This document shows, one piece after another, positions 6,924 to 22,030 of a stretch of DNA of 64,000 nt. Position 1 is the stretch's first letter, and every line of letters starts with the position of its first letter. The stretch is from Candidatus Multivoradales bacterium. GTDB taxonomy: Bacteria; Acidobacteriota; Thermoanaerobaculia; Multivoradales; JAHEKO01. Under the pieces are notes generated by a model that ran no database searches, was not told where the DNA came from, and saw only the letters and a program-made list of their open reading frames with translations. A program made the position numbers and the translations under genes. The stretch lies in NCBI GenBank assembly GCA_965224065.1, contig CBDCYF010000005.1, positions 2,175,616 to 2,239,615 on the forward strand, in the 5' to 3' direction.

Positions 6924-7978
6924 CGGGTGCCTTCCTGAGCCGCGCCGATCGTCGCCGGCTCGACCGGGGTTCCTGCCGGGTTGGGCCGCGGATGGACCAG
7001 CACGCGATCCCCTTCGACTCGCACGCGGAAGGTCGGGACCTTCTCGGTAAACGGAGGCGGTGAAGAGCCGTTCTCCGGCCGGTACTGGAACCCGTGCCAG
7101 GGGCAGGTAATGCATCCGTCGATGATCCTGCCCTCGCCGAGCGGGCCATTCTGATGCTGACAGACATTCGAGACCACCGAGATCTTGCCGTCGTAGCGAA
7201 AGACCGCCACCCGCTCGCCCGCCAGGCAGACGATACGAGCACGCTTCTCGGCGATGTCACCCACCCGGCAGGCTTCGACATAGCCATCCGCGTCTCCAGC
7301 CGCCTGAAGCTCGCGGTCGCCGGCGCGCTCGCGCCAGCCCGCCACCAGATGGAGTCCGAGCACCCAGACCAGACCCAGCCCAAGCAGGCCGGCCAACACC
7401 GGGTGCCGCTCGGATTGCAGTACGCCGAGCGCCACGTGGAGCACGATCAGCCCGTAGGCAACGTAGACCATCATATGGAGCGTCTTCCACACCGGCGCCG
7501 TCAGGTTGGCGAGCCAGAAATCGTGGCTGGTCGCGGCCATCAAGAAGAGGATCGCCAGCGCCGCCAGCCCCAGCGGCTGGAACGGAAACTGCGCCAGATC
7601 CCCCCAGCGACCGTTCGAGGTCAAGACGCTCACCAGCGGGTTGACGTCGCCGAGAGCGTGAAACTGGAAGATCGAAAAACCGCCGTGGACGAGCGCGAGA
7701 AAGAACAGAGTCACGCCCATGTGGCGGCGGTTGTAGAGCAGCGGCAGAAAGCGCGTGTCGAGCCGGCAAAGCGGGCCGATCGAAAGAATGACATGGAGCA
7801 GCAGCAGCGCCGCAGTGCCGAAGGCGCGGATGAGAAGCGTTTCGACGGTGGCGTTGGGACGCGCCAGCGCCCCCAGTCCCACAAACACCACCAGATACAG
7901 GAGCACCCCGGCGAGAAGCGCGCGGTCGTAGATCTTCTTCTGCCGGTTCCAGCCGACAAACCGGTAAGCGTGGCTCAT
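6920..7978 (-). CDS. membrane di-heme-b (ferric-reductase/MsrQ-like) domain fused to a C-terminal Rieske [2Fe-2S] domain
   Basis: 352 aa. N-terminal ~220 aa carry multiple TM helices with conserved His (LLLHVILS, LALVHGGFSIFQFH, ATSHDFW, IVLHVALG), resembling the Ferric_reduct heme-b domain. C-terminal CQHQNGPLGEG...CITCPWHGFQY is a Rieske CxH...CxxH motif. Confidence 0.65.
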   Translation of the reverse strand: MSHAYRFVGWNRQKKIYDRALLAGVLLYLVVFVGLGALARPNATVETLLIRAFGTAALLLLHVILSIGPLCRLDTRFLPLLYNRRHMGVTLFFLALVHGGFSIFQFHALGDVNPLVSVLTSNGRWGDLAQFPFQPLGLAALAILFLMAATSHDFWLANLTAPVWKTLHMMVYVAYGLIVLHVALGVLQSERHPVLAGLLGLGLVWVLGLHLVAGWRERAGDRELQAAGDADGYVEACRVGDIAEKRARIVCLAGERVAVFRYDGKISVVSNVCQHQNGPLGEGRIIDGCITCPWHGFQYRPENGSSPPPFTEKVPTFRVRVEGDRVLVHPRPNPAGTPVEPATIGAAQEGTR

Positions 7979-8112
7979 CGCTGGGCCTCGACTAAGTTCT
8001 CTTCATACGGGCGCTCGGGCCTGGCCGCCAGCGCCGCGAGAAAAAGCACCAGGGCCACCACCGCGATGATCGCCACCAGCCAGAAATGGCGTCGGCGCAG
8101 CGGCCGGATCAC
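7975..8112 (-). CDS. putative small single-TM protein (45 aa, GTG start)
   Basis: GTG at 8112-8110 overlaps the TGA of the upstream ORF (GTGA). VIRPLRRRHFWLVAIIAVVALVLFLAALAARPERPYEENLVEAQR. Stop overlaps the start of the downstream membrane-Rieske gene. Confidence 0.25.
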   Translation of the reverse strand: MIRPLRRRHFWLVAIIAVVALVLFLAALAARPERPYEENLVEAQR

Positions 8113-8402
8113 CGCCGCGTCTCCTTGTGCGACGAAAAGACCGGCCGGCCGGAGCGCGTGAGGTCTCGGTGAGGGTTGCGCTCTTCCGGGGGCGACGCGC
8201 CCCGAATCCACCGCCGCGCCAGCAGCGGCCACAAGGCCGCGGTCGCGGGCAAGATCGCCAGCCGGAACCCCCAGCTACCGCCCACGGCCTGCGGGTCGAT
8301 CCGCTGAGCGCCGCGGATCACAAAGGCAATCCCAAAGAGGAGACCTATGCCCAGGTACACGCCGGTTACGAGTAGCAGCCAACTCGCGATTGTCTCGGTC
8401 AT
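8109..8402 (-). CDS. putative small 2-TM membrane protein
   Basis: MTETIASWLLLVTGVYLGIGLLFGIAFVIRGAQRIDPQAVGGSWGFRLAILPATAALWPLLARRW... The C-terminal tail is low complexity, so the true end or frame is uncertain. Confidence 0.3.
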   Translation of the reverse strand: MTETIASWLLLVTGVYLGIGLLFGIAFVIRGAQRIDPQAVGGSWGFRLAILPATAALWPLLARRWIRGASPPEERNPHRDLTRSGRPVFSSHKETRR

Positions 8403-8432
8403 CTGTTCCGCCGGTTTTGGAGGTTCACGCCT

Positions 8433-10403
8433 TCAGACCAGCTCCGGATCGGCCACGACCTCGACCAGGCTGGGACCGTCGTGCGCCAGTGCCCTGTCTA
8501 GCGCTTCGTCCAGGTCCTCCTTGTCGGTCACCCGGATACCCAGGGCCCCGCACAGCTCCGCGTATTTCGAGAAATCCGGATTGTGAAGCGAGGTCTGCCA
8601 AACCTCCCAGTTGCCCGATCGCTGCTCCTTGGAGATCTTGCCCAGCTCCGAGTTGTTGAGCAGCACGTGGGTGATGTTCATGCCGTACTTGACCGCGGTG
8701 GTGATCTCGCCCAGATACTGGCCAAAGCCGCCGTCGCCGGTCACCGCCACCACCGGGCGGCCCTTGAAGCGCGGATCGTCTTCCTGGGTCGCCGCCCACG
8801 CCCCCATCGCCGCCGGATAGCCAAAGCCGATCGAGCCCAGATACCCCGACATCAAAACGGCCTGCCGGCTGCATTCGAAGTAGCGCCCGAACGAGTAGGT
8901 GTTGTTGCCGACGTCGACCGCGATGACGGCGTCCTCGGGCACCTTGCGGTTCATGGCGGCAAACACCGCCGAGGACGAGACGCCCCGGCCGCGCTCTTCG
9001 GCCTGGCGCCGCTCCTTCTCGTGGCGCCAGATGGCCCACCGCTCGGCGATCTCGGGCCGCTGGTCGACCGTATCGATCCCGTCGCCCAGCTCGTCTCGCA
9101 ACAGCCGCGCGGTCACCCCGATCTCGCCCCACACCGGCACCTTGACGGCGTGGAACTTGCCCAGGATCATCGGGTCGTAGTCGACCTGGACGATCGGACG
9201 CTTGGGGGTGATCCCGGTGTGGTTCGAAAAGCTGGCGCCAAAGACCAGCAGGGCGTCGGACTCGTTCATGAAGTAGCTGGCGATCGGCGTGCCGCTCCGG
9301 CCCAGGACGCCACAGCCCAGCGTGTGGTGGTCCGAAACCAGGCCCTTGCCCTTGAAGGTGGTGAGCACCGGGCTGTTCAAACGCTCGGCCAGCTCGAGGA
9401 TGGCATCCATCTCGAAGCGGGCGCCGTGGCCAACGATGATCACCGGCCGCTTCGATCCGCGGATCACATCGAGTGCCCGGTCCAGGGACTCTCGGGGGGG
9501 CGCAATCTCGCGCGGCGCCACCCGACCCTCAGGGCGGCTCGCTTTGGCATTGGGCGGCGCTTCGAGCGTCTGGACCTCGTCGGGAAAGATGAGATGCGAC
9601 ACGCCCCGGTTGAGGATGGCGCTCTTGGCCGCCAGGTTGACCAGCTCGGCGTGGCGGGAGGTGTGGAGCACCGGCTGGCTCCACTGGGCGACCTTGCCAA
9701 AGGCCGCCGACAGATCGACCTCCTGAAACGCCCCCGGCCCGAGCACCTGGGTATCCACCTGGCCGGTGAGCGCAAGGACCGGCGAACGGTCCACGTTGGC
9801 GTCCCACAGGCCGGTCAGCAGATTGGTCGCGCCCGGCCCGGCGATGGCCAGACAGGCTGCCGGCCGGCCGGTCAGCTTGCCGTAGGCCGAGGCGGCAAAC
9901 GACGCCGCGGCCTCGTGGCGGATGCCGTAGAACGTCAGGTTGCCGGCCTCCTCCTGCCGTCGCAGCGCGTCGGCCAGACCGAGGTTGGAGTGCCCGACCA
10001 TGCCCCAGACATGGCGGATGCCCCAGTTGACCATCGTCTCGGCCATCACGTCGGTCACCGTCGGGACGTGAGTCTCCTCGGGCGCAAAACCGACATAGAC
10101 ACCGTCCTTGCGCTCTTCGACCGGGAACGTCGCCACCCCGTCGTCAAAGCCCGGAGCCTTACCGGTGAGCGGATCGTAGTCCCAACCATGCCAGGGGCAT
10201 CGCAGCAGACCGTTCTCGATCGAGCCCTCTCCCAACGGCCCGCCCTGGTGGGGACAGCGATTGTCGAGCGCGCCGTACTCGCCGTTGTGACGCGTCATAC
10301 AGACCGTGGTGTGCTCGCAGGTCACCGGCTTGACCCGGCCTTCGGCCAGCTCGTCCGGTTCTAAAACCTTCAGCCAGACTCTTTCGCTGGTGTCGCTCGG
10401 CAT
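8433..10403 (-). CDS. Rieske [2Fe-2S] domain fused to a thiamine-diphosphate-dependent enzyme (pyruvate-oxidase/acetolactate-synthase-like)
   Basis: 656 aa. N-terminal CPHQGGPLGEGSI...LLRCPWHGWDY. The remainder has TPP_enzyme N/M/C-like regions including the GDG-X-NN ThDP motif AVTGDGGFGQYLGEITTAVKYGMNITHVLLNNSELG. Confidence 0.75.
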   Translation of the reverse strand: MPSDTSERVWLKVLEPDELAEGRVKPVTCEHTTVCMTRHNGEYGALDNRCPHQGGPLGEGSIENGLLRCPWHGWDYDPLTGKAPGFDDGVATFPVEERKDGVYVGFAPEETHVPTVTDVMAETMVNWGIRHVWGMVGHSNLGLADALRRQEEAGNLTFYGIRHEAAASFAASAYGKLTGRPAACLAIAGPGATNLLTGLWDANVDRSPVLALTGQVDTQVLGPGAFQEVDLSAAFGKVAQWSQPVLHTSRHAELVNLAAKSAILNRGVSHLIFPDEVQTLEAPPNAKASRPEGRVAPREIAPPRESLDRALDVIRGSKRPVIIVGHGARFEMDAILELAERLNSPVLTTFKGKGLVSDHHTLGCGVLGRSGTPIASYFMNESDALLVFGASFSNHTGITPKRPIVQVDYDPMILGKFHAVKVPVWGEIGVTARLLRDELGDGIDTVDQRPEIAERWAIWRHEKERRQAEERGRGVSSSAVFAAMNRKVPEDAVIAVDVGNNTYSFGRYFECSRQAVLMSGYLGSIGFGYPAAMGAWAATQEDDPRFKGRPVVAVTGDGGFGQYLGEITTAVKYGMNITHVLLNNSELGKISKEQRSGNWEVWQTSLHNPDFSKYAELCGALGIRVTDKEDLDEALDRALAHDGPSLVEVVADPELV

Positions 10404-10421
10404 GGATCTCTTCGCCGCCCG

Positions 10422-12041
10422 CTAGAGCGGGACGGCGCCTCCGTAGTGGACGCCGGTGAGGTAGGCAACGTCTCGTTTCCAGGTCGTCAGGTCCTCGATG
10501 CGGAAGTCCGCCAGACGAGAGTGGCCGCAGGCCCGCGCCAGCAGCTTCATCAGCTCGACCGAGGCGCCAAAAAACCGCGCCAACCGCTCGGCCGCCTCGT
10601 CCACCGGCAGGCGTTCGCGCAGTTGCGGTTTCTGCGTCGCGATCCCGACCGGGCAGTTGTTGGTGTGGCACGCCCGCATACCGAGACAGCCGATCGCCTG
10701 GATCGCCGCGTTCGACACCGCGACGCCGTCGGCGCCCAGCGCCAGCGCCTTTGCAAAGTCGGCGGGAGTGCGGAGCCCGCCGGTGATGATCAACGTGACC
10801 TCTCCGCTCTTGCCTCTGAGATCGAGATGCTGCCGCGCCCGCGCCAGCGCCGGCAACGTCGGCACCGAGATGTTGTCGCGAAAGATCAGCGGGGCCGCCC
10901 CCGTGCCCCCGCCACGGCCGTCCAGGATGACGTAGTCCACGCCGATCCGGAGCGCCGCGTCGATGTCGTCCTCGATGTGCTGGGCCGAAAGCTTGAACCC
11001 GATCGGAATGCCGCCCGTGGACTCGCGCACCTCGTCGGCAAAGTGACGAAAGGGCTCCACGTCGTCCCAATCGGGGAAGCGCGACGGCGAGACCGCCTGC
11101 TGCCCCTCCTCGAGACTCCGGACCTCCGCGATCTTGCCCACGACCTTCTCGCCCGGCAGGTGTCCGCCGGTTCCGGTCTTCGCCCCCTGGCCGCCCTTGA
11201 AGTGAAAGGCCTGCACCCCCTGGAGCTTGTCCATCGAGAAACCGAAGCGCGCCGAGGCGAGCTCGTAGAAATAGCGGCTGTTCGCTCCCTGCTCCTCGGG
11301 CAGCATTCCCCCTTCGCCCGAACAGATCCCGGTGCCGGCGAGCTCCGCCCCTTTTGCGAGAGCCACCTTGGCCTCGAAGGACAGCGCGCCAAAGCTCATG
11401 TCCGAGACAAAGAGCGGAATGTCGAGCACCAGCGGCTTGGCGGCGTTTGGGCCGACCACCAGCTCGGTGCCCACCGGTGTGTCGTCGAGCTGGGGCACGC
11501 GCGCGAGCTGGGCGGTGACGAACTGGAGATCGTCCCAGACCGGGAGCTGGCTTCTCGGCACGCCCATTGCCGCCACCGGGCCGTGGTGCCCGACCTTTTC
11601 CAGCCCGTTGGCCGCCAGCTCGCGGATGAACTTGACGTATGGCTCGGCCGGGCTGCCTTTCGAGTGGTCCTGAAAGACTCCTTGGTAGGCGTCGCGCGCA
11701 TAGGGCTGCGGGTTATCACGCTCCCAGGCGGCAACCTCGTCCCGGTCGACCCAGACGCCGCCGTCTTCGACCCAGGAAGAGAACTTGTGGAGCCTCTCCT
11801 CCGGGGCGTAGGAGCTCACCCCGCTTCGAAACTGATAGTCCCAGTTGTGGACTCCGCAGATGATGTCGTCACCACGCACAAAGCCGTCGGACATCAAGGC
11901 ACCACGGTGCTGGCAGCGACCGTAGAGCACCGAGACTTCCTCGTCGTACCGAACCACCACCAAGTCGACGTTGGTAACCAGCGCGTGGGCCGGCTGGCGG
12001 TCGGCCAGCTCTACCCACTCGGCGATCTTCACCTTGTCCAT
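10422..12041 (-). CDS. Rieske [2Fe-2S] domain fused to a glutamate-synthase-like FMN-binding (GltS domain-2) protein
   Basis: 539 aa. N-terminal CQHRGALMSDG...CGVHNWDY. C-terminal ~400 aa match the glutamate-synthase FMN-domain family (GEGGMLPEE, DGRGGGTGAAP, ITGGLRTPADFAKALALGADGV, CHTNNCPVGIATQ). Confidence 0.75.
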   Translation of the reverse strand: MDKVKIAEWVELADRQPAHALVTNVDLVVVRYDEEVSVLYGRCQHRGALMSDGFVRGDDIICGVHNWDYQFRSGVSSYAPEERLHKFSSWVEDGGVWVDRDEVAAWERDNPQPYARDAYQGVFQDHSKGSPAEPYVKFIRELAANGLEKVGHHGPVAAMGVPRSQLPVWDDLQFVTAQLARVPQLDDTPVGTELVVGPNAAKPLVLDIPLFVSDMSFGALSFEAKVALAKGAELAGTGICSGEGGMLPEEQGANSRYFYELASARFGFSMDKLQGVQAFHFKGGQGAKTGTGGHLPGEKVVGKIAEVRSLEEGQQAVSPSRFPDWDDVEPFRHFADEVRESTGGIPIGFKLSAQHIEDDIDAALRIGVDYVILDGRGGGTGAAPLIFRDNISVPTLPALARARQHLDLRGKSGEVTLIITGGLRTPADFAKALALGADGVAVSNAAIQAIGCLGMRACHTNNCPVGIATQKPQLRERLPVDEAAERLARFFGASVELMKLLARACGHSRLADFRIEDLTTWKRDVAYLTGVHYGGAVPL

Positions 12042-12126
12042 GAGTCCTCCGTAATCCAGCCGCTGCGCCGGCGCAGTCTACAAGGCCAAGTCAGCGCTTG
12101 GCCCGTACTACACCGGTTAGGATGGG

Positions 12127-12537
12127 GTGGCGATGAAAGGACTGAGCTGGATCCTCCGAGGCATTGCTGCTGTCATCCTCTTGCAGACGCTGTTCTTCAA
12201 GTTCACCGCGGCGCCCGAGTCGGTCTTTATCTTCGAGACTCTCGGAATGGAGCCCTGGGGCCGGATCGGCTCCGGTGTGGCCGAGCTCGTCGCCGCGGTC
12301 CTCCTCCTCGTGCCGGCAACCACCCTATACGGCGCGATCCTGGCGTTGGGATTGATGGCAGGCGCCATTGTGAGCCATCTGACCCGTCTGGGTATCGAGG
12401 TTCAGGGTGACGGTGGCCTGTTGTTCGGTCTGGCACTGGTCGTTACCGCATGCTGTCTCAGCCTGGTGGCGCTCGACCGGCGCCGTCTCGGTGAGCTTTG
12501 CGCGCGTATCCTCGGGCAGGGCCGGAAGAAAGGGTAA
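12127..12537 (+). CDS. DoxX-family membrane protein
   Basis: 136 aa, four predicted TM helices. Divergent from the Rieske operon. Confidence 0.6.
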   Translation: MAMKGLSWILRGIAAVILLQTLFFKFTAAPESVFIFETLGMEPWGRIGSGVAELVAAVLLLVPATTLYGAILALGLMAGAIVSHLTRLGIEVQGDGGLLFGLALVVTACCLSLVALDRRRLGELCARILGQGRKKG

Positions 12538-14033
12538 GCGCCAAACCCACCGTGGCCGAACCTCGAGAAGACGACCGACCGAAAAGCTCCGACGGCTGGA
12601 GCGGCGCAGTCGGAGGCCGGTCCGAGCGGACGCTCGAACGGCTCTTCGAAGTCGCGTCGGCACAGATCGCGACCGAGCATGAGCTCACCAGCCGCGACCG
12701 CGACCCCGAGGAGCTCTATGACGAGCTGGGGATCGCGCTCTCTGAAGAAGGCGTCTCCTTCGACGAGGTCGTCGACCGGTTGCGGGCCATCCTGGCGGCG
12801 ACTCCGTCCGCGGCGGGTCGCCGCTTCCTCAACCAGCTTTTTGGCGGCCGCGATGAGATCGCCAGCCTGGCCGAGATGCTCACCCCGCTTGTCAACACTT
12901 CGATGTATACCTACAAGGTGGCCGGCCCGCAGGTGCTCCTCGAGCGGGAAGTGCTGGCCCGCATGGGCGCAAAGATCGGTCTGGCCGACGGCGAGGGAAT
13001 CCTGTGTCCCGGCGGCTCGCTGGCTACGCTGACGGCGATGCTGATCGCGCGCAACGAAGCTCTCGACGGGGTGCGGGACCAGGGGCTTGGAGCCATGGCC
13101 GGGCGGGGCTTGACCCTCTACACATCGGTCGACGGCCACTATTCGGTACGCAAGAACGCCGGCATTCTGGGTCTGGGAAGAAGCTCGGTACGCGAGATCG
13201 CGACCGACGACGGCGGCCGTATGGACGTCGAGGCCTTGCGCCAGACTATCCGCTCGGATCGGGCCGCCGGCCACCGGCCCTTGCTGGTCAACGCCACCGC
13301 CGGCTCGACGGTGCTGGGTGCCTTTGACCCGATCCACGAGATCGGCCTCATCGCCCAGGACGAAGGAATGTGGCTGCACGTCGACGGGGCCCTGGGCGGC
13401 TCGGTGGCGCTCTGTTCGCGGCACCGAGACCTGATCGACGGCTCCGAGCTGGCCGACTCCTTTGTCTGGAATGCCCACAAGATGATGGGTGTGCCGCTGC
13501 CGTGCTCGGCGTTGCTCTTGGCCCGGCGTGGCCAGCTTCAGCGCCAGCTTGCCGAGCCGGCCGACTATCTCTTTCAAAGCCACGGCGACGAGCTCAACCC
13601 GGGCACGCGTTCGATCCAGTGCGGGCGCCGCAACGATGCGCTCAAGCTGTGGGCGGCCTGGAAGCTCCACGGAGACCGTGGCTACGACCGACGGCTGAGT
13701 CGCCTGTTCGACCTGGCCCAATACACGGCCTCGCGGGTGGAGGCTGACCCGGCTTTCGAGCTGCTCTTGCCACCGGAATCGATCAACGTGTGTTTCCGGG
13801 TGAAGGGAAGGTCGAGCGCTGACATCTGCGGGCAGCTCGACCGCGAGGGCCGTCTGTTGATCGGACACGGCAAGGCGCAAGGGCGACAGGCGATCCGGCT
13901 GGTCTGTGTGAACCTCGATCTCGAGGAACGAGACATCGACGACGCCTTGGGTGCGATCCGACAAGCCGCCGCGTCTCTGCCGGCCGTCGAAGACCCGACG
14001 CCCGACAATCCCATCCCATCGGCCGCTCGATGA
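12498..14033 (+). CDS. PLP-dependent group II amino-acid decarboxylase (GadB/CSAD/DABA-decarboxylase-like)
   Basis: 511-aa ORF. An alternative in-frame GTG at 12552 lies just after the DoxX stop. PLP-lysine motif NAHKMMGVPLPCS, plus HVDGALGGS. Confidence 0.8.
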   Translation: MRAYPRAGPEERVSAKPTVAEPREDDRPKSSDGWSGAVGGRSERTLERLFEVASAQIATEHELTSRDRDPEELYDELGIALSEEGVSFDEVVDRLRAILAATPSAAGRRFLNQLFGGRDEIASLAEMLTPLVNTSMYTYKVAGPQVLLEREVLARMGAKIGLADGEGILCPGGSLATLTAMLIARNEALDGVRDQGLGAMAGRGLTLYTSVDGHYSVRKNAGILGLGRSSVREIATDDGGRMDVEALRQTIRSDRAAGHRPLLVNATAGSTVLGAFDPIHEIGLIAQDEGMWLHVDGALGGSVALCSRHRDLIDGSELADSFVWNAHKMMGVPLPCSALLLARRGQLQRQLAEPADYLFQSHGDELNPGTRSIQCGRRNDALKLWAAWKLHGDRGYDRRLSRLFDLAQYTASRVEADPAFELLLPPESINVCFRVKGRSSADICGQLDREGRLLIGHGKAQGRQAIRLVCVNLDLEERDIDDALGAIRQAAASLPAVEDPTPDNPIPSAAR

Positions 14034-14812
14034 AGACGCTCAGCCAGGTCTTCCCGCTTCACCGCGAACAGCTTCCCACCACAACCCTGGGGGAGAGCCA
14101 CTACGAGATCCGATTCGCCCAGACTTCGGAAGAGCTCGATGCCATCCAGAAGCTGCGTTTCGAAGTGTTCAACCTCGAGATGGGTGAAGGCCTCGAAGAG
14201 TCATTCGAGAGCGGCCGCGACGCCGACGCCTTCGACCCGGTATGCCACCACTTGATGGTCACCGACCGCAACACCGACTCGATCGTCGGCTGTTACCGGA
14301 TGCAGACCGCCGCGATGGCAAGCGCCAATCGTGGTTTCTATTCGTCGAGCCTCTTCGATCTCTCAACCCTCCCCGAGACCGCAACCGAAAAGTCCATCGA
14401 AGTGGGCCGCGCGTGCGTCGCCAAGAGCCATCGCAGCTCGCTGGTGCTCTTTTTGCTCTGGAAGGGCCTGGCTCTCTATGTCGCCCACAACCAGGTGCGG
14501 TATCTCTTTGGCTGCTGCTCGCTGACCAGCCAGGATCCGGCGGAGGGCAGCGCGGTCTTGCGCTATCTCGAAGAGGGCGGGCGTATGCACCCGGAGTGGT
14601 CGATCCAACCGGTCCCCGACTGTGTGTGCCCCATCGACCGCACCGTCGAGGCGGCCACCGGGGTGCCGACGCTCTTCCGGACATATCTTCGATATGGCGC
14701 CAAGGTCTGCGGTCCCCCGGCGATCGATCGCGAGTTCAAGACCATCGATTACCTGGTGGTGCTCGATATCGACGGGCTGTCTCCGCGAACCCACCGGATG
14801 TTCTTCGATTAA
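14030..14812 (+). CDS. olsB: OlsB-like N-acyltransferase (Acetyltransf_5, hemolysin-like; lyso-ornithine-lipid synthase or N-acyl amino acid synthase family)
   Basis: 260 aa. ATGA overlap with the decarboxylase stop. Pattern LRFEVFNLEMGEG...HLMVTDRNTDSIVGCYRM...LVLFLLWKGLALYV is typical of OlsB-like/N-acyl amino acid synthases. Confidence 0.65.
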   Translation: MKTLSQVFPLHREQLPTTTLGESHYEIRFAQTSEELDAIQKLRFEVFNLEMGEGLEESFESGRDADAFDPVCHHLMVTDRNTDSIVGCYRMQTAAMASANRGFYSSSLFDLSTLPETATEKSIEVGRACVAKSHRSSLVLFLLWKGLALYVAHNQVRYLFGCCSLTSQDPAEGSAVLRYLEEGGRMHPEWSIQPVPDCVCPIDRTVEAATGVPTLFRTYLRYGAKVCGPPAIDREFKTIDYLVVLDIDGLSPRTHRMFFD

Positions 14813-14844
14813 CCCGGGGCCTCACGGGTGCCGAGAGAGCTGGA

Positions 14845-15630
14845 GTGAAAACCCTCCGCGCCGGTTGGCGTCTTCTGCTCGTCGCCAAGACGACGGCTTT
14901 TTTCTACGCCCTGGTGCTTGCCGGGACGGCGGTAGTCGCTTTCGCGCCGCGCCAGCGCATCCGTTGGCGCGATTTCTGTTTCCGCAACTGGTCGCGGTGG
15001 GTGCTTGCGATTCTCCACGTCACCGTCGAGCACCAGGGTACGCCACCTCGGCCACCCTTCTTTCTGGTCGCGAATCATCTGAGCTACATCGACATCCTGG
15101 TGCTGGCCAGCCACGTCGACGCGGTGTTCATCGCCAAATCCGAAGTTCGGTCCTGGCCGATCATCGGGCTTCTCTGCCGCTCGGTCGGCACGCTCTTTGT
15201 CGACCGCGGGTCACGGCGCGACATCCCGCGGGTGATCGCCGAGATCGATCGTGTGCTGGGCCACGGCCAGGGAATCGTCCTCTTCCCCGAGGGCACCAGC
15301 ACCCCGGGTTTCGAGGTCGGCCGCTTCCGGCCCTCGCTCCTCGAGGTGGCCGCGCGCGCCGGGATCCCGGTCTCCCACGCCAGCCTGAGCTACGACACCG
15401 GCGACGAATCAAAGCCGGCCCACCTCACCGTTTGCTGGTGGGGAGACATGGAATTCCCCGGCCACTTCTGGCGTCTGCTGGCACTCCCGAGGTTCACCGC
15501 AAAACTGTCGTTTGGACGCGACACGATTCAGGACGACGACCGCAAGCGTCTCGCCGATCGCCTGCAAGCCGCGGTCGAGCGGCAATTCGTTCCCGTCGTG
15601 TCCGAGGGCGCACCCACGGAGGCGGCGTGA
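14845..15630 (+). CDS. olsA: PlsC-family lyso-lipid O-acyltransferase (OlsA-like)
   Basis: GTG at 14845, 33 nt after the olsB stop. The long ORF 14242..15630 is an out-of-frame read-through artefact. HxxxxD motif in FLVANHLSYIDILVL and the FPEGTSTPG motif. Confidence 0.7.
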   Translation: MKTLRAGWRLLLVAKTTAFFYALVLAGTAVVAFAPRQRIRWRDFCFRNWSRWVLAILHVTVEHQGTPPRPPFFLVANHLSYIDILVLASHVDAVFIAKSEVRSWPIIGLLCRSVGTLFVDRGSRRDIPRVIAEIDRVLGHGQGIVLFPEGTSTPGFEVGRFRPSLLEVAARAGIPVSHASLSYDTGDESKPAHLTVCWWGDMEFPGHFWRLLALPRFTAKLSFGRDTIQDDDRKRLADRLQAAVERQFVPVVSEGAPTEAA

Positions 15631-15652
15631 GGCGGTCGGGCGAGCCACAAGC

Positions 15653-18226
15653 GTGAAGCGCCGGATCTTTCTCGCCCTGGGGGCTGTCTATCTCGCTCTT
15701 CTGGCGATGTCGCACCTCGTGCGCTCGCAGCGCGCCGCACCGGTCCCGCCACCCGAACTTGCCGTCCTGGAGCTGTCCGCAGGATCCGATGGCCGTGACC
15801 CGGTCCGCCTCGGCTACAAGAGCTGGGGCCACTCGACCGACGTTGCGGTCGACGTTGCGGTAGTTCTCCTCCACGGCAGCCCGGGATCCAGCCGTGATTT
15901 CGACGCGCTCGGGCCCCGGCTGGCCGACGACCGCCGGGTGCTGGCGCCGGATCTGCCCGGGTTCGGGTTCTCGACCCAAAGCGTGCCCGACTACTCGATC
16001 GCGGCGCATGCCGGCTATGTTCAGGCGTTTCTGGATCGCCTGGATGTCGGACAGGTCCACGTCCTGGGCTTCAGCATGGGAGGCGGGGTCGCGCTCGAGC
16101 TCGCGGCGCGGCAACCCGATCGGGTGCGCTCGGTGACCCTCCTGTCTTCAATCGGCGTCCAGGAGCTCGAGCTCCTCGGAAGCTACCCCCTCAACCACGG
16201 CGTCCACGGGTTGCAACTCGCCGGCCTGTGGTTGCTCCACGAAGCGGTGCCGCATTTCGGGATACTCGACGGATTCCCGCTCAATGTCCCCTACGCCCGC
16301 AACTTCTTCGACACCGACCAGCGGCCACTGCGAGGCGTTCTGGAGCGGCTCGAGATGCCGATCCTCATCGTCCACGGCGAACACGACTTTCTGGTGCCCG
16401 CGGCGGCCGCCCGCGAGCACCATCGCCTGGCACCTCAGAGCGAGCTGGCGATGATCGACGCCGGCCACTTCATGGTCTTCCGGGACAACCCATCGCTGGC
16501 GTCGACGGTCGGGGATTTCTTGGGACGGGCCGAAGCCGGCCGGGCAGTCCGGCGGGCGGAAGCTCTCTCCGAGCGGCGGGCCGCGGCGCTGGTGCCGTTT
16601 GACGCCGCACAGGTTCCCGCGGCCACCGGCGTCACCCTGGCGGTCTTGATCGCGCTGATCGCGATCGCCACCTTGATCAGCGAAGACGCCACCTGCATCG
16701 CGACCGGCTTGCTGGTCGCGCAGGGCCGCGTCGGGTTTCTGGCGGGCAGCGTGGCTTGCGCCGTCGGCATCCTGGTCGGCGACTTGATGATCTACGCGGC
16801 CGGACGATTTCTGGGGCGACCCGGGCTCCGTCATGTGCCGCTCAAATGGCTCGTCTCGCCACGCGCCCTCGCTCGGGGCTCGGCGTGGTTCGCTCGCCGC
16901 GGACCCGCGGTGATCGTGTCGAGCCGGTTTTTGCCCGGGACTCGGGTGGCCACGTACTTCGCCGCCGGTCTTCTCAAAACCAGCTTCTGGAAGTTTCTGG
17001 GCTATTTTCTGATCGCGGTTCTCGCCTGGACGCCGCTCCTGGTCGGTCTGTCCGCCTGGCTCGGGAGCCGGCTGTCGCAGCACTTCGAGGCGTTTCAGCG
17101 CTGGGCGCTCCCCGGCGCCGTTGCCCTCGCGCTTCTCGCCACCGTCACCCTAAAGCTCGCGCGGGCGCTGTCGAGCTGGAAGGGACGCCGCCTTCTTCTG
17201 GGCGCGCTCGGCCGCAAGCTCAAGTGGGAGTTCTGGCCTTGGTGGCTGATCTATGTTCCGGTCGCCCCGTGGATCGCCTGGGTGGGGCTGCGTCACCGGA
17301 GCCCGACGCTCTTTACCGCCGTCAACCCGGCGATTCCGGCAGGCGGGTTTGTCGGTGAGTCGAAGGCGGCGATTCTGGGATCGATCGACCCCCGGTGGGT
17401 GGCGCGGTTTCGGAAAATTCCCGCCGGGGGATCACCCGCGTCCCGACTCGGGATGGCCCAAGACTTCTTGCGCCGCGAGCGGCTCGAGCTGCCGGTGGTG
17501 GTCAAGCCCGACGTCGGCGAGCGGGGGACTGGATTTGCGATCGTCCGCACCGAACAAGAGCTCGAAGAAGCGATCGCGGAGCAGAGTCACGATCTGCTCG
17601 TTCAGGAGTACGTCGGGGGCGTCGAGCTGGGGATCTTCTACACCCGACGGCCCCAGGAAGACAGCGGCCGGATCTTCTCGATCACCGAGAAGAGACTGAC
17701 CACACTGACTGGCGACGGAACGTCGAGCATCGAGAAGCTGATCCTCGCCGATCGGCGCGCCGTGCTGCAGGCCCCGATCCACCTCGACAAGATGGCCGGC
17801 GAGCTCGACCGCGTCCCGGAAGCCGGCGAACAAGTGGCGCTGGTCGAGATGGGCGTCCACAGTCGGGGGGCGCTTTTTCTGGATGGCTCCGGCTTTCACA
17901 CCGAGGCCCTCGAACGGACGATCGACGGGATCAGCCGTTCCTTCGATGGGTTCTTCTTTGGACGCTACGACGTGCGAGCGCCGTCCCACGACGCTTTTCG
18001 CCGCGGCGAGGGTCTCAAGATCCTCGAGCTCAACGGTGTGACCTCCGAGGCCACCCATATCTACGACCCAAAGAACTCATTTTTGGACGCGACCCACTTA
18101 CTCCGCCGCCAGTGGACGCTGGCCTTCGAGATCGGAGCACAGAACCGGGCCCGCGGTGCGCGACCTGTCGGTATCGGCACGCTGGCCCGGCTGGTCTTCC
18201 GGCACTATTTTCCCGAGAGCCGCTAA
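15653..18226 (+). CDS. three-domain fusion: alpha/beta-hydrolase + DedA/SNARE-associated membrane domain + C-terminal ATP-grasp ligase
   Basis: GTG at 15653, 23 nt after the olsA stop. HGSPGSSRDF..GFSMGGGVA (GxSxG) hydrolase fold. VIVSSRFLPGTRVATYFAAGLL DedA motif with several TM helices. C-terminal VVVKPDVGERGTGFAIVRTEQELEEAI...LVQEYVGGVELGIFY ATP-grasp. Confidence 0.7.
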   Translation: MKRRIFLALGAVYLALLAMSHLVRSQRAAPVPPPELAVLELSAGSDGRDPVRLGYKSWGHSTDVAVDVAVVLLHGSPGSSRDFDALGPRLADDRRVLAPDLPGFGFSTQSVPDYSIAAHAGYVQAFLDRLDVGQVHVLGFSMGGGVALELAARQPDRVRSVTLLSSIGVQELELLGSYPLNHGVHGLQLAGLWLLHEAVPHFGILDGFPLNVPYARNFFDTDQRPLRGVLERLEMPILIVHGEHDFLVPAAAAREHHRLAPQSELAMIDAGHFMVFRDNPSLASTVGDFLGRAEAGRAVRRAEALSERRAAALVPFDAAQVPAATGVTLAVLIALIAIATLISEDATCIATGLLVAQGRVGFLAGSVACAVGILVGDLMIYAAGRFLGRPGLRHVPLKWLVSPRALARGSAWFARRGPAVIVSSRFLPGTRVATYFAAGLLKTSFWKFLGYFLIAVLAWTPLLVGLSAWLGSRLSQHFEAFQRWALPGAVALALLATVTLKLARALSSWKGRRLLLGALGRKLKWEFWPWWLIYVPVAPWIAWVGLRHRSPTLFTAVNPAIPAGGFVGESKAAILGSIDPRWVARFRKIPAGGSPASRLGMAQDFLRRERLELPVVVKPDVGERGTGFAIVRTEQELEEAIAEQSHDLLVQEYVGGVELGIFYTRRPQEDSGRIFSITEKRLTTLTGDGTSSIEKLILADRRAVLQAPIHLDKMAGELDRVPEAGEQVALVEMGVHSRGALFLDGSGFHTEALERTIDGISRSFDGFFFGRYDVRAPSHDAFRRGEGLKILELNGVTSEATHIYDPKNSFLDATHLLRRQWTLAFEIGAQNRARGARPVGIGTLARLVFRHYFPESR

Positions 18227-20085
18227 CCGCAGGTCAGCCGGATGCGACGCCGGTTGGCTCGGTACTCGGCGAGCGCGAGCTCCTGGAGCTCGTCCAAACC
18301 GTCGGCCTCTACCCAACGTCTTCTGATCTCGAGCTCTCGCTCGAGGCTGAAGCTTCCCGGCGTCTCGCGGTGCCGCACGGTCTGGATGAGGGCACCGAGC
18401 GAGTTCTCGACGGTTCGCGCCGTCTGCCCCGGTGGGCAAAGCCCTTCCGGCAGGGTGATATTCCACACCGTCGACGTCAATCGCGGCGCGATCACCACCG
18501 CTGTTTCTCGCTCGACGAGCGCCGATGGCTCGGGCAGCGATTCGAGCGCCACCGCCTCGAAGGACGGCGCCCCGCTCTCCAGCCCCTGGACCAACGACTG
18601 GAACCCGACCTGCGCGGTCAGGTGAATCGTCGGCACCTCCCCCTCTTGCTCGGCCCACGAGACCGGACCGAGACGAGCCGCCGGGACGAGCGCCGAGAAC
18701 AGCCCCCGGGTCTCCTCCTCGTTGCGCGCGGATGGTTGCGCCGCGAACCGGTGGAGCACACCGCTCGCCGCCGACCCCACAAAGGACAGCGCTGCGCCGC
18801 CGTTGGCGCTTCCATCCGGCTTTACCGTGAGGGTCACCGTCATCTCGCGGCGCTCGTGCTGGGGGCGCTGGGGAGTCCGAGCCAAAGTTCCTCCCCGGCC
18901 GGTGACCACGAGTGCGTGCTGGTCCTGCACGCCCGGGTGCAGCCAGCCGGCGGTGCCACGGGTCTGCGTCGGATCGACAAAAAAGAAGCCGTCGCCCACC
19001 GGATCGTCGCCCTCCGCCGAAACCTCACCCTCCGGGATGGCCACGATCATGTGGTTGAACTGGGTCGGAGACGGAAACTCGCTGCGAACCCGACCGCGCC
19101 GCGCCGACAAGATCAACGCAGGGTACGCCTCGATCTCGGCTTCGCGCAACAGGTCCAGAAGCAAAAGCGATTTGTCCTTGCAGTCGCCCCAACGCCGCTC
19201 CAGAACTTCTCCGGGCGGCGAGGGCCGGTAGCCCCCGATGCCGACTTCGACGGCCACATAACGGATCTGGCGACGCAGATAGGCGAGCAGACTCTCGAGC
19301 CGTTCGCGTGGGCTGGTGGCCTCGGCGATAAGCTCGCGCGCCTTGCCGCGAACCTGTGGGTCGCCGCGCGCCAACCCGGACGCGACCCCCTCGTACCAAC
19401 GCGCCACGCCGGCCCAAGTCGCGTCCTCACTCCAGGCGACCAAAAGATACGACGCTTGCGCCTCCTCCGGCGCCCGAGCCGGTGCGATGACGCCCTCGAG
19501 ACCGTTTCCACGAACCGTCAAAGCGCCTTCCGCGACGCTGGCTTCCAAGTCCCCATGAGGTCCGAGAAACTGCCAGCGCATACCGGACCCACCCCCGACA
19601 ACTCGCACCGAGAGCTTCTCGACCGGCTCCTCGCCACGAAGCCACAGCGTGCTGGCCGGGAAGTAGGGTCGAACCTCGAGCGTGTACGAGATGTCGATCA
19701 CCGAGCCGGTGCCGAGACCCGGCAGCTCGAGAATTTCAAAGCTGGCCGAAGAATGAAGCAAGTCTCCGGAGTACTCGACCCGGTCCTTGTGCCGCCGCTT
19801 GACCCGGTCGCGGCGGCCGTCGGCGTGAATGGCAAAAGCCTCGACTCCTTCGAGCTTCCGGTTTTTGTTGAGACGGATGGGATAGACCGACCAGTCGGCC
19901 GCGTCTGCCGCCGAGTCCATCCGAACCCTCATACGGACCCGCTCGACAAACCGATCGGCGCCCTGAATGTCGACGGTTACCGTCCGTTCGAGAATCGTCG
20001 CTGCCGCAAGTGGCTCCGCGCCGACCGCCAAGACGGCAGCCATGAAAAGAACGCTAGCGCGACACCAAAACCAGTCTCTGCGCAT
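18223..20085 (-). CDS. secreted DUF3857 + transglutaminase-like (Cys-protease fold) protein
   Basis: Signal peptide MRRDWFWCRASVLFMAAVLAVGAEPLAAA. Transglutaminase core RRWGDCKDKSLLLLDLLREAEIEAYPALIL with a catalytic Cys. The start could also be the upstream ATG at 20106. Confidence 0.6.
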   Translation of the reverse strand: MRRDWFWCRASVLFMAAVLAVGAEPLAAATILERTVTVDIQGADRFVERVRMRVRMDSAADAADWSVYPIRLNKNRKLEGVEAFAIHADGRRDRVKRRHKDRVEYSGDLLHSSASFEILELPGLGTGSVIDISYTLEVRPYFPASTLWLRGEEPVEKLSVRVVGGGSGMRWQFLGPHGDLEASVAEGALTVRGNGLEGVIAPARAPEEAQASYLLVAWSEDATWAGVARWYEGVASGLARGDPQVRGKARELIAEATSPRERLESLLAYLRRQIRYVAVEVGIGGYRPSPPGEVLERRWGDCKDKSLLLLDLLREAEIEAYPALILSARRGRVRSEFPSPTQFNHMIVAIPEGEVSAEGDDPVGDGFFFVDPTQTRGTAGWLHPGVQDQHALVVTGRGGTLARTPQRPQHERREMTVTLTVKPDGSANGGAALSFVGSAASGVLHRFAAQPSARNEEETRGLFSALVPAARLGPVSWAEQEGEVPTIHLTAQVGFQSLVQGLESGAPSFEAVALESLPEPSALVERETAVVIAPRLTSTVWNITLPEGLCPPGQTARTVENSLGALIQTVRHRETPGSFSLERELEIRRRWVEADGLDELQELALAEYRANRRRIRLTCG

Positions 20086-22030
20086 CGCTCTTGACGACCC
20101 AATCAAACAGATCTCGAATCGTTTTGTAGGATTCCTGTCCGGGAAAGAGCGTCTGCCGGACGTCCACGCGACGCGTATAGCGGAGCCGGCGTTGCTCTTT
20201 GTCGACCTCGAGCCGCGCGGCCAACGATCCGGCCGAGCTGTCGAACTGTCGATCCTGAGGAGTTATCTCGATGTCCCAGCCCGCAGGCCATGCAAGCTCC
20301 AGCACCACCTCGTCGCGATCGGCGAAAGGCATCAGAACCGGTGTGGCGCGGCGGCTTGGATCGAGGGCAAAGGGCTGACCCACCGGCCCGAGCGGCCGGC
20401 TGGGAATCACGGATGCTTCGTCTCCCAGCACCTCCTCCTCCCGCTGCGCCATCGACCAGCCGACGCGGATCATCTGTTCCTCGACCCGCTCCTCGACCCC
20501 GACGTCGTCGATCCCATAGCCGGGGAAGCGATCTTCGAGCCATCCGCTCCAATAGTCGAGCCGTGCTTCCTCGTCCTCCCCCGAGCGAAGGGCCACCCAG
20601 GCATGATGACCCAAAAGCTGCAACGACCCGGAGCCGCGGACCCGGCCCTCCGGATCGAGCGCGAGATCGAGCTCGGCGCGGCGCGTGTTGTCGTCAAACG
20701 GTCGCGACGGCAGGACGATCACCTCGGGCTTGCGGTGATGAAAAACCAGCGCCTGAGTCCCTTCGAAGTCAGGAGCCAGACGCCCCATGGCGAGACCCCG
20801 ATCCGATGGATCGAGAAAAACCTGTTGTCCTTCGACTTCGACCCGGACCAGAGAGCGGTCAAACCACCAGGGATTGGCGACGGTCAGATCGGCGCCACCC
20901 TCACTTCGGCGGGTGGCCCAGATGAGATCCGGCTTGAGCTTGAGCGTCTCGAGCATGGTCCGCAACAACAGTGCTTTCTCGAGCTCGCTACCGGCCCTCT
21001 CCGTCAGAACCAGATCGGCCCTGCGGCCCTCATCGACGCCAAAGTCGAGGGTCGAGAGCGTGCGGATCTCGTCTCGGACAAACCGATAGATCGCGTCGAT
21101 CGACGCCCGCAGGCTAGGTTGACCGGCTGCGAGCTCGGCGGCCTCCTTCTTGGTCTTGGACTTGCGGCCGACAAAATTGTTATGCGACTCGCGAAAGAGC
21201 TCGCACGCGCTCTTCCAAGAGTCAAGGAGTGGGTACGGCGAACCACTCAGCATCACGCTCACCGGGATCATCATGATGCGGCTCGACAGCGCACGGACCG
21301 GCAACGAAGACGGCTCCTCGGGAATGGCCCGCACATTCTCCATCCACACCCGCACCCGGCGTCCGACGGCCCCCCTCTCAAGTTCCGTCTTGATCTCGTT
21401 GCGGGTCGAGCTCACCCACCAGCGCTTGACCGAGAGATTTCCGGGAACGATGTAGGTGATCTCGGACTCGAGCGCCGGCAGCGAGCCGGCGAAATACCAC
21501 GGCTCGAGAAAAAAAAGTGAATCCCAGCGCATGTCGTAGCGGTAGTCGAGGATCGCCCCCACTTCGACTGCCGGAAACGCCAGCTTGGTCACAAAATACT
21601 TTTCCGAGCGCGACCGGCGCTGTTCGAAGACCGCGTCCTTGGGTAGCTCGACGACTCTTCCGTCCGGCAACACGGTGCGGCCTTCCACGTTCTTGAGTCG
21701 GAAGAACCGGCTGTGCGGGATCTCCACCTCGCCGAAACGGATTCCGGCCTCGGTCAGCACCTTGAGGCGAACCTCGACTTGGAAACGCGACGAGGCCTCG
21801 GTCGGAAAGTCCATAAACTGCAGCTCGCCGCTGCGGAAGAGGACCACCGCCGCGGCTTCGGGATCGTACGGCGGCGCTCCCTGGGCTTTCTCGGCGTCGG
21901 TGATCGGTCGAAAGCCGGCGGCCTGAACAGGGGAAGTTGCGAGCCCCGAGGTCACTGACAGGGCCAACCAAGCAATCGCGGCAGCAAGCGCACCGCTTAC
22001 GCGGGTCCCTCCCCGTTTTGTCCCGCTCAA
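20054..22030 (-). CDS. DUF3857/transglutaminase-like paralog lacking the catalytic Cys
   Basis: 658 aa with signal peptide. The region RAGSELEKALLLRTMLETLKLKPDLIW aligns with the GDCKDKS core of the neighbour but has Cys replaced by Glu. Confidence 0.5.
   Translation of the reverse strand: MSGTKRGGTRVSGALAAAIAWLALSVTSGLATSPVQAAGFRPITDAEKAQGAPPYDPEAAAVVLFRSGELQFMDFPTEASSRFQVEVRLKVLTEAGIRFGEVEIPHSRFFRLKNVEGRTVLPDGRVVELPKDAVFEQRRSRSEKYFVTKLAFPAVEVGAILDYRYDMRWDSLFFLEPWYFAGSLPALESEITYIVPGNLSVKRWWVSSTRNEIKTELERGAVGRRVRVWMENVRAIPEEPSSLPVRALSSRIMMIPVSVMLSGSPYPLLDSWKSACELFRESHNNFVGRKSKTKKEAAELAAGQPSLRASIDAIYRFVRDEIRTLSTLDFGVDEGRRADLVLTERAGSELEKALLLRTMLETLKLKPDLIWATRRSEGGADLTVANPWWFDRSLVRVEVEGQQVFLDPSDRGLAMGRLAPDFEGTQALVFHHRKPEVIVLPSRPFDDNTRRAELDLALDPEGRVRGSGSLQLLGHHAWVALRSGEDEEARLDYWSGWLEDRFPGYGIDDVGVEERVEEQMIRVGWSMAQREEEVLGDEASVIPSRPLGPVGQPFALDPSRRATPVLMPFADRDEVVLELAWPAGWDIEITPQDRQFDSSAGSLAARLEVDKEQRRLRYTRRVDVRQTLFPGQESYKTIRDLFDWVVKSDAQRLVLVSR

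Follow-up and report, generated by a model that had tools for sequence, protein, structure and literature searches.

We analysed a stretch of 64,000 nucleotides from Candidatus Multivoradales bacterium (Acidobacteriota, Thermoanaerobaculia; assembly GCA_965224065.1, contig CBDCYF010000005.1, positions 2,175,616 to 2,239,615 of the forward strand), here called the window, and in it one gene that encodes an alpha/beta-hydrolase, a DedA membrane domain and an ATP-grasp ligase in a single chain of 857 amino acids. This fusion gene (15653..18226, plus strand, stop codon included) begins with GTG. An in-frame TTG at 15512 is an alternative start that would run into the upstream gene; position 15653 is favoured because homologues start a few residues ahead of the first hydrophobic helix. 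The fusion gene is the last of four on the plus strand. The first (12498..14033) encodes a pyridoxal phosphate-dependent group II decarboxylase that resembles cysteine sulfinate decarboxylase (CSAD; Pfam Pyridoxal_deC, 249 bits), and its stop codon overlaps the ATG (as ATGA) of a gene for an OlsB-like amino acid N-acyltransferase (14030..14812; Pfam Acetyltransf_5, 107.6 bits). Next comes a gene for an OlsA-like lyso-aminolipid O-acyltransferase (14845..15630; Pfam Acyltransferase, 82.6 bits) with a probable GTG start, position 14809 offering no start codon. The fusion gene follows after 22 base pairs, so that the position immediately after olsA that had been given in a preliminary description of this DNA is correct. 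Because of the overlap between the first two genes and the short later gaps, we read the cluster as an operon. An open reading frame at 14622-15656, tried as olsA, is without family matches and was discarded; the real OlsA-like gene lies in the frame of 14242-15630. In NCBIfam, the two acyltransferases best match the L-ornithine N(alpha)-acyltransferase and the lyso-ornithine lipid O-acyltransferase, with 162 and 127 bits respectively, where the cutoffs are 320 and 300.

Judged from sequence, the fusion is a real and widely conserved protein, predicted to be polytopic and to sit in the inner membrane, and its gene closes an operon of ornithine-lipid type. Among 5.8 billion proteins searched, more than 120 full-length homologues (830-900 amino acids) came to light, from independent NCBI, ENA, JGI and Logan assemblies; their annotation reads just 'alpha/beta fold hydrolase', and they belong to metagenome-assembled genomes of Acidobacteriota, Thermoanaerobaculia or Blastocatellia. 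The 68 that were aligned are 51-73% identical to the window protein and collinear across all three domains. A scan of a genome collection with the single fusion protein found at least one true relative. An artefact of sequencing or assembly that unites separate genes, which the preliminary description had raised in the form of a frameshift, would be in keeping with one relative (L013) in which the ATP-grasp ligase is a separate gene, overlapping by 4 base pairs. We give this explanation practically no weight, since the fused frame is kept in the more than 120 homologues, with the 68 collinear throughout, and since relatives are encoded in 549 of 600 candidate metagenome stretches. Coordinates, translation, motifs and domain matches all agree with the single three-domain frame proposed at the outset: HGSPGSS lies at residues 74-80, GFSMGGG at 139-145, VVVKPDVGERGTGF at 615-628 and EYVGGVELGIFY at 652-663, and the Pfam matches of the hydrolase and VTT domains exceed their gathering scores. 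As key residues are invariant in the 68 homologues, all three domains appear catalytically or functionally intact. An AlphaFold2 model of the full-length protein reached a predicted local distance difference test score (pLDDT) of 89.8 and a predicted template modelling score (pTM) of 0.64.

The protein opens with a membrane helix (residues 2-25, 15656..15727; hydropathy peak 2.21, helical in the model), whose N-terminus is predicted to be cytoplasmic; S20 is invariant in it and H21 is kept in at least 90% of homologues. The alpha/beta-hydrolase domain (residues 37-295 approximately, 15761..16537) is predicted from topology to be periplasmic, and is defined by invariant columns and by its match to Pfam Abhydrolase_1 (residues 69-280, E 3e-35, 122 bits against a cutoff of 25.8). 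H74-G75, S141 within GFSMGGG, D245 and H272 are invariant in the 68 homologues, which is the pattern of a catalytic triad. Domain match, GxSxG nucleophile elbow, Ser-Asp-His triad and HG oxyanion motif together establish membership in the alpha/beta-hydrolases, and bear out the GxSxG hydrolase of the preliminary description. The domain could not be assigned to a particular subfamily: every NCBIfam equivalog scored far under its cutoff. The nearest solved sequence is an intracellular polyhydroxybutyrate (PHB) depolymerase (8ynv, E 9e-19); the similarity is otherwise generic.

The DedA/VTT membrane domain (residues 326-506, 16628..17170) is delimited by its Pfam match (VTT_dom, PF09335, residues 351-466, E 3e-16, 60.4 bits against a cutoff of 33.9), the helices of the model and the loop charges. 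It consists of a first hairpin (326-356) with E344 and D345 at its turn, a helix (362-392), a cytoplasmic loop rich in lysine and arginine, a second hairpin (about 403-440) with R425 and R431 at its turn, and two further membrane helices; in the model, the hairpins appear as the helix pairs 326-342/344-356 and 403-424/431-440. E344, D345, D377, R425 and R431 are invariant in the 68 homologues, so that the DedA/SNARE-associated domain that had been suspected is borne out by domain score and hairpin residues alike. In a BLASTP alignment to Escherichia coli YqjA, D345 pairs with D51, R425 with R130 and R431 with R136; the YqjA sequence used agrees with all residue identities quoted in the topology paper through position 162. 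The domain fits the DedA family (PF09335, COG0586-like), sharing the two-hairpin architecture and the invariant YqjA equivalents with E. coli YqjA and YghB and with Bacillus subtilis UptA. It did not, however, reach the UptA equivalog (NF052604), which is its best NCBIfam match (E about 1e-20; 73.7-77.5 bits against 250). Unlike YqjA, YghB and UptA, the fusion has a 270-residue enzyme domain inserted ahead of its first hairpin, and its last helix is followed by a ligase. In a survey of DedA fusions, rhodanese and PAP2 are the only partners given for the COG0586 subfamily (PMC10127716).

The remainder of the protein begins with a helix rich in lysine and arginine (residues 509-523, net charge +6.6) and a tryptophan-rich interfacial segment, WEFWPWW... 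(residues 525-547), together at 17177..17293, followed by the ATP-grasp carboxylate-amine ligase domain (residues 548-857, 17294..18223), which is predicted to be cytoplasmic. By sequence this assignment is weak. The full-length protein scores 19.8 bits against the RimK/ATP-grasp cutoff of 21 in Pfam (E 6.6e-4), and the isolated C-terminal domain 21.4 bits, marginally over it. Other specific ATP-grasp families stayed under their cutoffs (Dala_Dala_lig_C 17.1 against 24, NCBIfam cyanophycin synthetase 26 against 850; E about 2e-6 for the cyanophycin synthetase or CPS-like models of NCBIfam). The fold is confirmed by structure prediction and Foldseek. An AlphaFold2 model of residues 546-857, built from 25 homologues, has a pLDDT of 88 and a pTM of 0.84, and Foldseek returned 402 PDB matches at E <= 0.001, of which the 50 listed are all ATP-grasp ligases (TM up to 0.61). 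Leading the list are cyanophycin synthetases (E about 3e-10, TM 0.5-0.6), GshF with its ATP-grasp half, and numerous D-Ala-D-Ala ligases. The C-terminal domain is of the ATP-grasp fold, as the preliminary description had it.

Alignments add the elements expected of such an enzyme. In profile matches to 2pn1, CphA, GshF and Ddl, the strand and loop 'PVVVKPD.G.RG.G' and the hinge 'QEYV' align, and an hhalign comparison with a DdlB sequence pairs PVVVKP with PVIVKP and LVQEYV with LIEKWL, in the central region only. Together with the fold, the VKP lysine, the glycine-rich loop and the hinge fit the ATP-grasp definition, and K618, G622, R624, G625, Q651, E658, R771, D773, E792 and N794 are invariant in the 68 homologues. 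The last four (GRYD...ELNG) lie on predicted strands beyond the point where the alignments to solved enzymes end, so that their likeness to the Mg2+-binding acid/Asn pair (E-x-N) and the catalytic Arg of such enzymes is one of motif pattern and fold. The domain thus shares fold, VKP lysine, glycine-rich loop and QEY hinge with the cyanophycin synthetase G domain, GshF and Ddl, and with cyanophycin synthetase also a 'GDGxST..LI' stretch. It differs from these enzymes in its low identity (14-21%), in an N-terminal substrate domain cut to about 50 residues, and in being preceded by a membrane-interface segment and joined to membrane domains.

When 1.84 billion cluster representatives were searched by HMMER with the C-terminal domain as query, 2505 matched at E <= 0.001, of which 1011 reached E <= 1e-30. 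The matches show four architectures. Besides the three-domain proteins (about 850-900 amino acids), there are DedA plus ATP-grasp proteins (about 520-600 amino acids, with a Met start just ahead of a 'SED' motif), stand-alone ATP-grasp proteins (about 325-390 amino acids) and one protein, P0241, in which a TANGO2 domain precedes hydrolase, DedA and ATP-grasp. Since the ATP-grasp domain occurs alone or with DedA only, we take a membrane-anchored ligase to be the conserved core of the family, to which DedA and hydrolase were added at the N-terminus. Many stand-alone proteins open with 'R..RWEFWP.W' (for example P0153, P0221, P0244, P0257 and P0269), and for this reason we read the segment at residues 509-547 as the membrane anchor of the ligase.

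The topology of the fusion can be approached through YqjA. By cysteine accessibility, the E. coli protein exposes A20, S52, V59 and V180 to the periplasm but V99, L117 and G217 to the cytoplasm; the acidic hairpin dips into the membrane from the periplasm and the arginine hairpin from the cytoplasm, and TMEM41B is arranged alike. In the alignment, the periplasmic A20 falls at residues 319-320 or so, in the linker behind the hydrolase. Net charge across homologues is +6.0 for the loop 381-419 and +6.6 for the loop 504-524, and the N-terminal tail has +2.1 from lysine and arginine. P0241 provides a further point of reference: its TANGO2 domain (Cys2, NRDE, no signal peptide), followed by eight lysine or arginine residues, stands ahead of the first membrane helix, and because this domain is of a cytoplasmic type, we set the N-terminal side of that helix in the cytoplasm. 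The ATP-grasp domain is also placed there, because it needs ATP. We therefore consider it likely that the chain runs from a cytoplasmic N-terminus through helix 2-25 to a periplasmic hydrolase, then through an outer hairpin, a helix, a cytoplasmic loop, an inner hairpin and two helices to the cytoplasmic interface segment and the ATP-grasp domain. A full span at 324-342, which would leave the hydrolase in the cytoplasm, was considered and dropped in view of the YqjA mapping, the position of E344/D345 and R425/R431 at turns, and the protein that begins with TANGO2. The earlier suggestion that both soluble domains act on one face of the membrane does not agree with this mapping, which predicts opposite faces.

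Gene neighbourhoods were compared for 89 fusion-encoding loci, searched with their neighbouring proteins, and the counts are over loci with enough upstream flank. The roughly 3 kb upstream contain an OlsB-like gene at 34 of 44 loci, an OlsA-like gene is present at 36 of 53 and a TANGO2 homologue at 26 of 64. A DinB-like protein of about 175 amino acids is found at 43 of 60. In L013, a hydrolase-DedA gene and a split-off ATP-grasp gene lie within an olsB-olsA-DinB-TANGO2 cluster. DinB-TANGO2-ligase trios contain stand-alone ligases that share about 45% identity with the window domain, and one of this identity adjoins olsB/olsA in the cultured gammaproteobacterium Arenicella xantha (GCA_003315245.1, contig QNRT01000002.1, near 939-956 kb); a literature search on the lipids of Arenicella yielded nothing. 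On a metagenome contig, a stand-alone ligase gene overlaps by 4 base pairs a bona fide olsF (760.6 bits against an NCBIfam cutoff of 620). This association with predicted aminolipid synthases of two architectures is the strongest evidence for the putative role of the ligase in aminolipid metabolism.

Two of the neighbours deserve separate mention, although the window itself has neither a TANGO2 nor a DinB-like gene. Human TANGO2 is reported to bind acyl-CoA and to have a Cys-Ntn-hydrolase-like fold, with no known substrate. The bacterial homologues (L010, L011, L013, L094-L097) all start with MCT..., that is with a cysteine at position 2, and keep the NRDE motif; they lie directly upstream of the ligase or fusion gene, to which the domain is fused in P0241. 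As far as gene context goes, their surroundings point to N-acyl amino acid lipids. The DinB_2-superfamily protein, about 170-190 amino acids long, is the commonest immediate upstream neighbour (for example in L006, L009-L011, L013 and L094-L097).

The decarboxylase of the window is closest to human and mouse CSAD (2jis, E 2e-92; 6zek, E 1.4e-91), followed by GADL1 (6enz, E 2.7e-77) and the glutamate decarboxylases GAD65/67 (2okk, 3vp6 and 2okj, E about 1e-70). According to the mouse CSAD structure preprint, Phe94 determines the preference for cysteine sulfinate, being replaced by Ser in GAD and by Tyr in GADL1. The window enzyme has Phe at this position ('FLNQLFGG' against 'FFNQLFSG'), and the next stretch, 'NTSxYTY', also agrees with CSAD. 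On account of this similarity and the CSAD-type Phe, the enzyme is best read as forming hypotaurine, taurine or beta-alanine.

Taken together, these observations suggest a model in which the fusion finishes an aminolipid pathway of the OlsB/OlsA type by ligating on the inside, flipping, and processing on the outside; we give it about one chance in two. The lipid that OlsB and OlsA assemble is an N-(3-acyloxyacyl) amino acid that keeps its alpha-carboxylate free, and relatives of these two enzymes in the operon would supply such a lipid to the fusion. The ATP-grasp domain, held at the inner leaflet by its tryptophan-rich segment, would turn the carboxylate of the head group into an acyl phosphate and ligate an amine to it. 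The product would be a lipid with an amide-extended head group, of the type of cerilipin (taurine-ornithine lipid) or of a dipeptide lipid, and in this genome the amine would most likely come from the co-transcribed CSAD-like decarboxylase, as hypotaurine, taurine or possibly beta-alanine. The DedA domain, with the acidic and di-arginine hairpin residues of YqjA and UptA, may then bind the now anionic lipid and move it to the outer leaflet. There the hydrolase, predicted to occupy the periplasmic loop ahead of the first hairpin of DedA, could act as esterase or transacylase and remove or transfer an ester-linked fatty acid. Extension of the head-group carboxylate fits better than re-attachment of an amino acid, because the closest ATP-grasp structures activate the alpha-carboxylate of an amino acid or peptide. 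Of the function suggested in the preliminary description, the membrane-embedded enzyme that modifies lipid head groups fits the gene context and is retained; a cycle of deacylation by the hydrolase and religation of an amino acid by the ATP-grasp domain on one face is not, given the predicted opposite faces and an ATP-grasp core that occurs without the hydrolase.

Other orders of events are conceivable. The ligase could first make a soluble head-group precursor (an amino acid-amine conjugate or a dipeptide) that OlsB then N-acylates, leaving to DedA just the export of the lipid. Its closest structural relatives, Ddl and GshF, do ligate soluble substrates, and proximity to olsB, olsA or olsF fits this sequence of reactions equally well. 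Yet the ligase module has a membrane-interface segment rich in lysine, arginine and tryptophan, also in many stand-alone forms, its fusion to a lipid-binding DedA domain recurs, and its central domain is preceded by only about 50 residues, against a complete N-terminal substrate domain in Ddl, all of which makes a soluble precursor unlikely in our view, if the least unlikely of the competing accounts. Somewhat more doubtful still is a one-face remodelling cycle in which the hydrolase is the key enzyme, as an OlsI-like O-acyltransferase or a lipid deacylase, and the ATP-grasp domain re-attaches an amino acid or acyl group. PHB depolymerases cleave 3-hydroxyacyl esters, and the hydrolase is nearest to one of them. 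In the third ornithine-lipid pathway, O-acylation is the task of an alpha/beta-hydrolase, OlsI (PMC12493201), and an OlsI-like role would suit above all the 17 of 53 loci at which no OlsA-like gene was found (for example L006 and L010). Such a cycle is at odds with the predicted placement of hydrolase and ATP-grasp on opposite faces and with a family in much of which the hydrolase is dispensable, the ATP-grasp domain being always present. Moreover, ATP-grasp enzymes are not known to use a fatty acyl substrate.

The substrate might also be isoprenoid-phosphate-linked or of peptidoglycan type, with a UptA-like DedA domain recycling undecaprenyl phosphate, a Ddl-like ligase adding an amino acid to a precursor linked to lipid, and olsBA nearby through shared envelope regulation. 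UptA as best NCBIfam match of the DedA domain, the retained acidic and di-arginine residues and the many Ddl structures among the listed Foldseek matches would all suit this idea. What makes it improbable to us is that the UptA score, at 74-78 bits, stays far short of 250, that the neighbourhoods whose gene tables were examined contain no mur or cell-wall genes, and that the ligase adjoins aminolipid synthases of two architectures, in Acidobacteriota, in Gammaproteobacteria and on unassigned contigs.

Several observations also speak against an aminolipid ligase coupled to flipping and outside processing. The 80 metagenome loci stem mostly from related lineages, so that the context counts are not independent events, and at 10 of 44 loci (for example L005, L031 and L046) there is no OlsB-like gene in the roughly 3 kb upstream. 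The OlsB-like and OlsA-like proteins fall under the equivalog cutoffs; going by these scores, they do not fix the amino acid of the presumed head group. Of 41 loci, just 2 (the window and L008, a close relative) have the decarboxylase along with the fusion; the amine must differ between loci, and taurine is a guess that concerns particular ones. The DedA domain most resembles undecaprenyl-phosphate transporters, and its arginine pair is usually read as phosphate-binding. As for the topology, which is inferred, lysine and arginine counts are about equal on either side of the first helix (2.4 each), where only the net charge differs, and the pTM of the full-length model leaves domain packing uncertain.

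The proposed reaction has counterparts among known lipids. A 2026 review (PMC12971839) describes an ATP-dependent transfer of taurine onto the ornithine-lipid carboxyl group for which no gene is known, and for cerilipin formation in Gluconobacter/Gluconacetobacter cerinus it cites Tahara et al. 1976-78. In cerilipin formation, as in our model, the free carboxyl of an OlsBA-type lipid would be amidated with a small amine at the expense of ATP, and the window operon has a gene for a CSAD-like enzyme whose product would be hypotaurine or taurine. The cerilipin enzyme is known only biochemically and has no known sequence. Most fusion loci have no decarboxylase. The same review describes glycine lipid as the precursor of serine-glycine lipid and also lists an ornithine-serine-glycine lipid, and names no enzyme that adds serine or extends the head group. 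In our literature searches, no earlier account came up of an ATP-grasp or DedA protein in connection with aminolipids or ornithine lipids.

Compared with the synthases OlsBA, OlsF and OlsHI, the fusion shares the context, in that it or its ligase module is encoded beside OlsB/OlsA-like genes or a bona fide OlsF, and OlsI offers a precedent for an alpha/beta-hydrolase as lipid acyltransferase (PMC12493201). It has no GNAT, PlsC or GH3 domain, in contrast to these synthases, and would be an additional downstream enzyme rather than a synthase. A looser parallel concerns functional logic only. MprF is an aminoacyl-phosphatidylglycerol synthase fused to a flippase, has periplasmic partner hydrolases and uses aminoacyl-tRNA and phosphatidylglycerol. 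Like MprF, the fusion would combine a cytoplasmic head-group enzyme with a lipid-translocating domain, with a hydrolase acting outside; unlike MprF, it would use ATP and probably an aminolipid, and has all three activities on one chain. No MprF-related family is among the Pfam and NCBIfam matches listed for the fusion protein. The folds of the fusion are known and their arrangement is not previously described; its theme is that of a head-group-modifying enzyme joined to a lipid translocator.

A broader proposal can be made, tentatively and with more reserve than the model itself. The membrane-anchored ATP-grasp family may be the missing ligase for aminolipid head groups of the cerilipin type and possibly of peptide-type lipids, its acidobacterial three-domain form a self-contained machine that ligates, flips and processes with catalytic domains on both faces, connected by a DedA transporter, and the bacterial TANGO2 homologues dedicated enzymes of the aminolipid pathway. 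Lipids in which a second residue is amide-linked to the carboxylate of the first include taurine-ornithine lipid, known since the 1970s, as well as lipids of the serine-glycine and of the ornithine-serine-glycine kind, and the family is a testable candidate for making them; the fusion would then be a candidate for an enzyme activity that has been without a gene for decades. The compact four-gene operon is suited to heterologous expression, and A. xantha, a cultured carrier, is open to genetics and lipidomics. If the proposal is true, a DedA domain gains a defined lipid context, tied to enzymes on both faces, which bears on what DedA proteins transport. The tight linkage of TANGO2 homologues to the ligase module would likewise make the function of a human disease gene approachable in bacteria.

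Some further genes accompany members of the family. In distant lineages, a protein of about 150 amino acids with a weak YHS-domain match lies downstream of the cluster (L009 12568-13014, L096 10793-11266, L097 10634-11083), in L096 beside an MBOAT acyltransferase. A 226-residue protein with faint matches to SprT-like or DUF2268 (zinc protease-like) families (L011 12670-13350) is the immediate downstream neighbour at 15 of 69 fusion loci. In L005 (9323-9937) and L012 (6968-7549), a DUF1579 protein and an extracytoplasmic function (ECF) sigma factor are found beside the fusion and a stand-alone ligase, respectively, with no olsB nearby, which suggests an alternative, stress-regulated context.

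Long open reading frames of 340-650 amino acids without family matches, antisense to the real genes or out of frame with them, occur in the window at 10446-12410 (plus), 12402-13964 (minus), 8583-10364 (plus) and 14622-15656 (plus); as such frames are typical of G+C-rich DNA, raw length is an unreliable guide here. Two tandem minus-strand genes for DUF3857/transglutaminase-like proteins (18223-20106 and 20054-22030) run towards the operon's end, and the former overlaps the stop codon of the fusion by 4 base pairs and closes the cluster. On the other side, divergent from the aminolipid operon, a set of Rieske-domain proteins is encoded on the minus strand (6168-12041). It comprises a protein with Rieske and glutamate-synthase flavin mononucleotide (FMN) domains (10422-12041), one that joins a Rieske domain to a PoxB-like thiamine-diphosphate enzyme (8433-10403), one with a ferric-reductase-type membrane haem domain and a Rieske domain (6920-7978), and a protein of 250-315 amino acids of no known function (6168-7115); the last two accompany the fusion gene in 11 of 37 loci. 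The set also occurs in L006, L008, L009, L019, L024, L041, L070, L081 and L086, and three enzymes each with its own Rieske module are an unusual combination.

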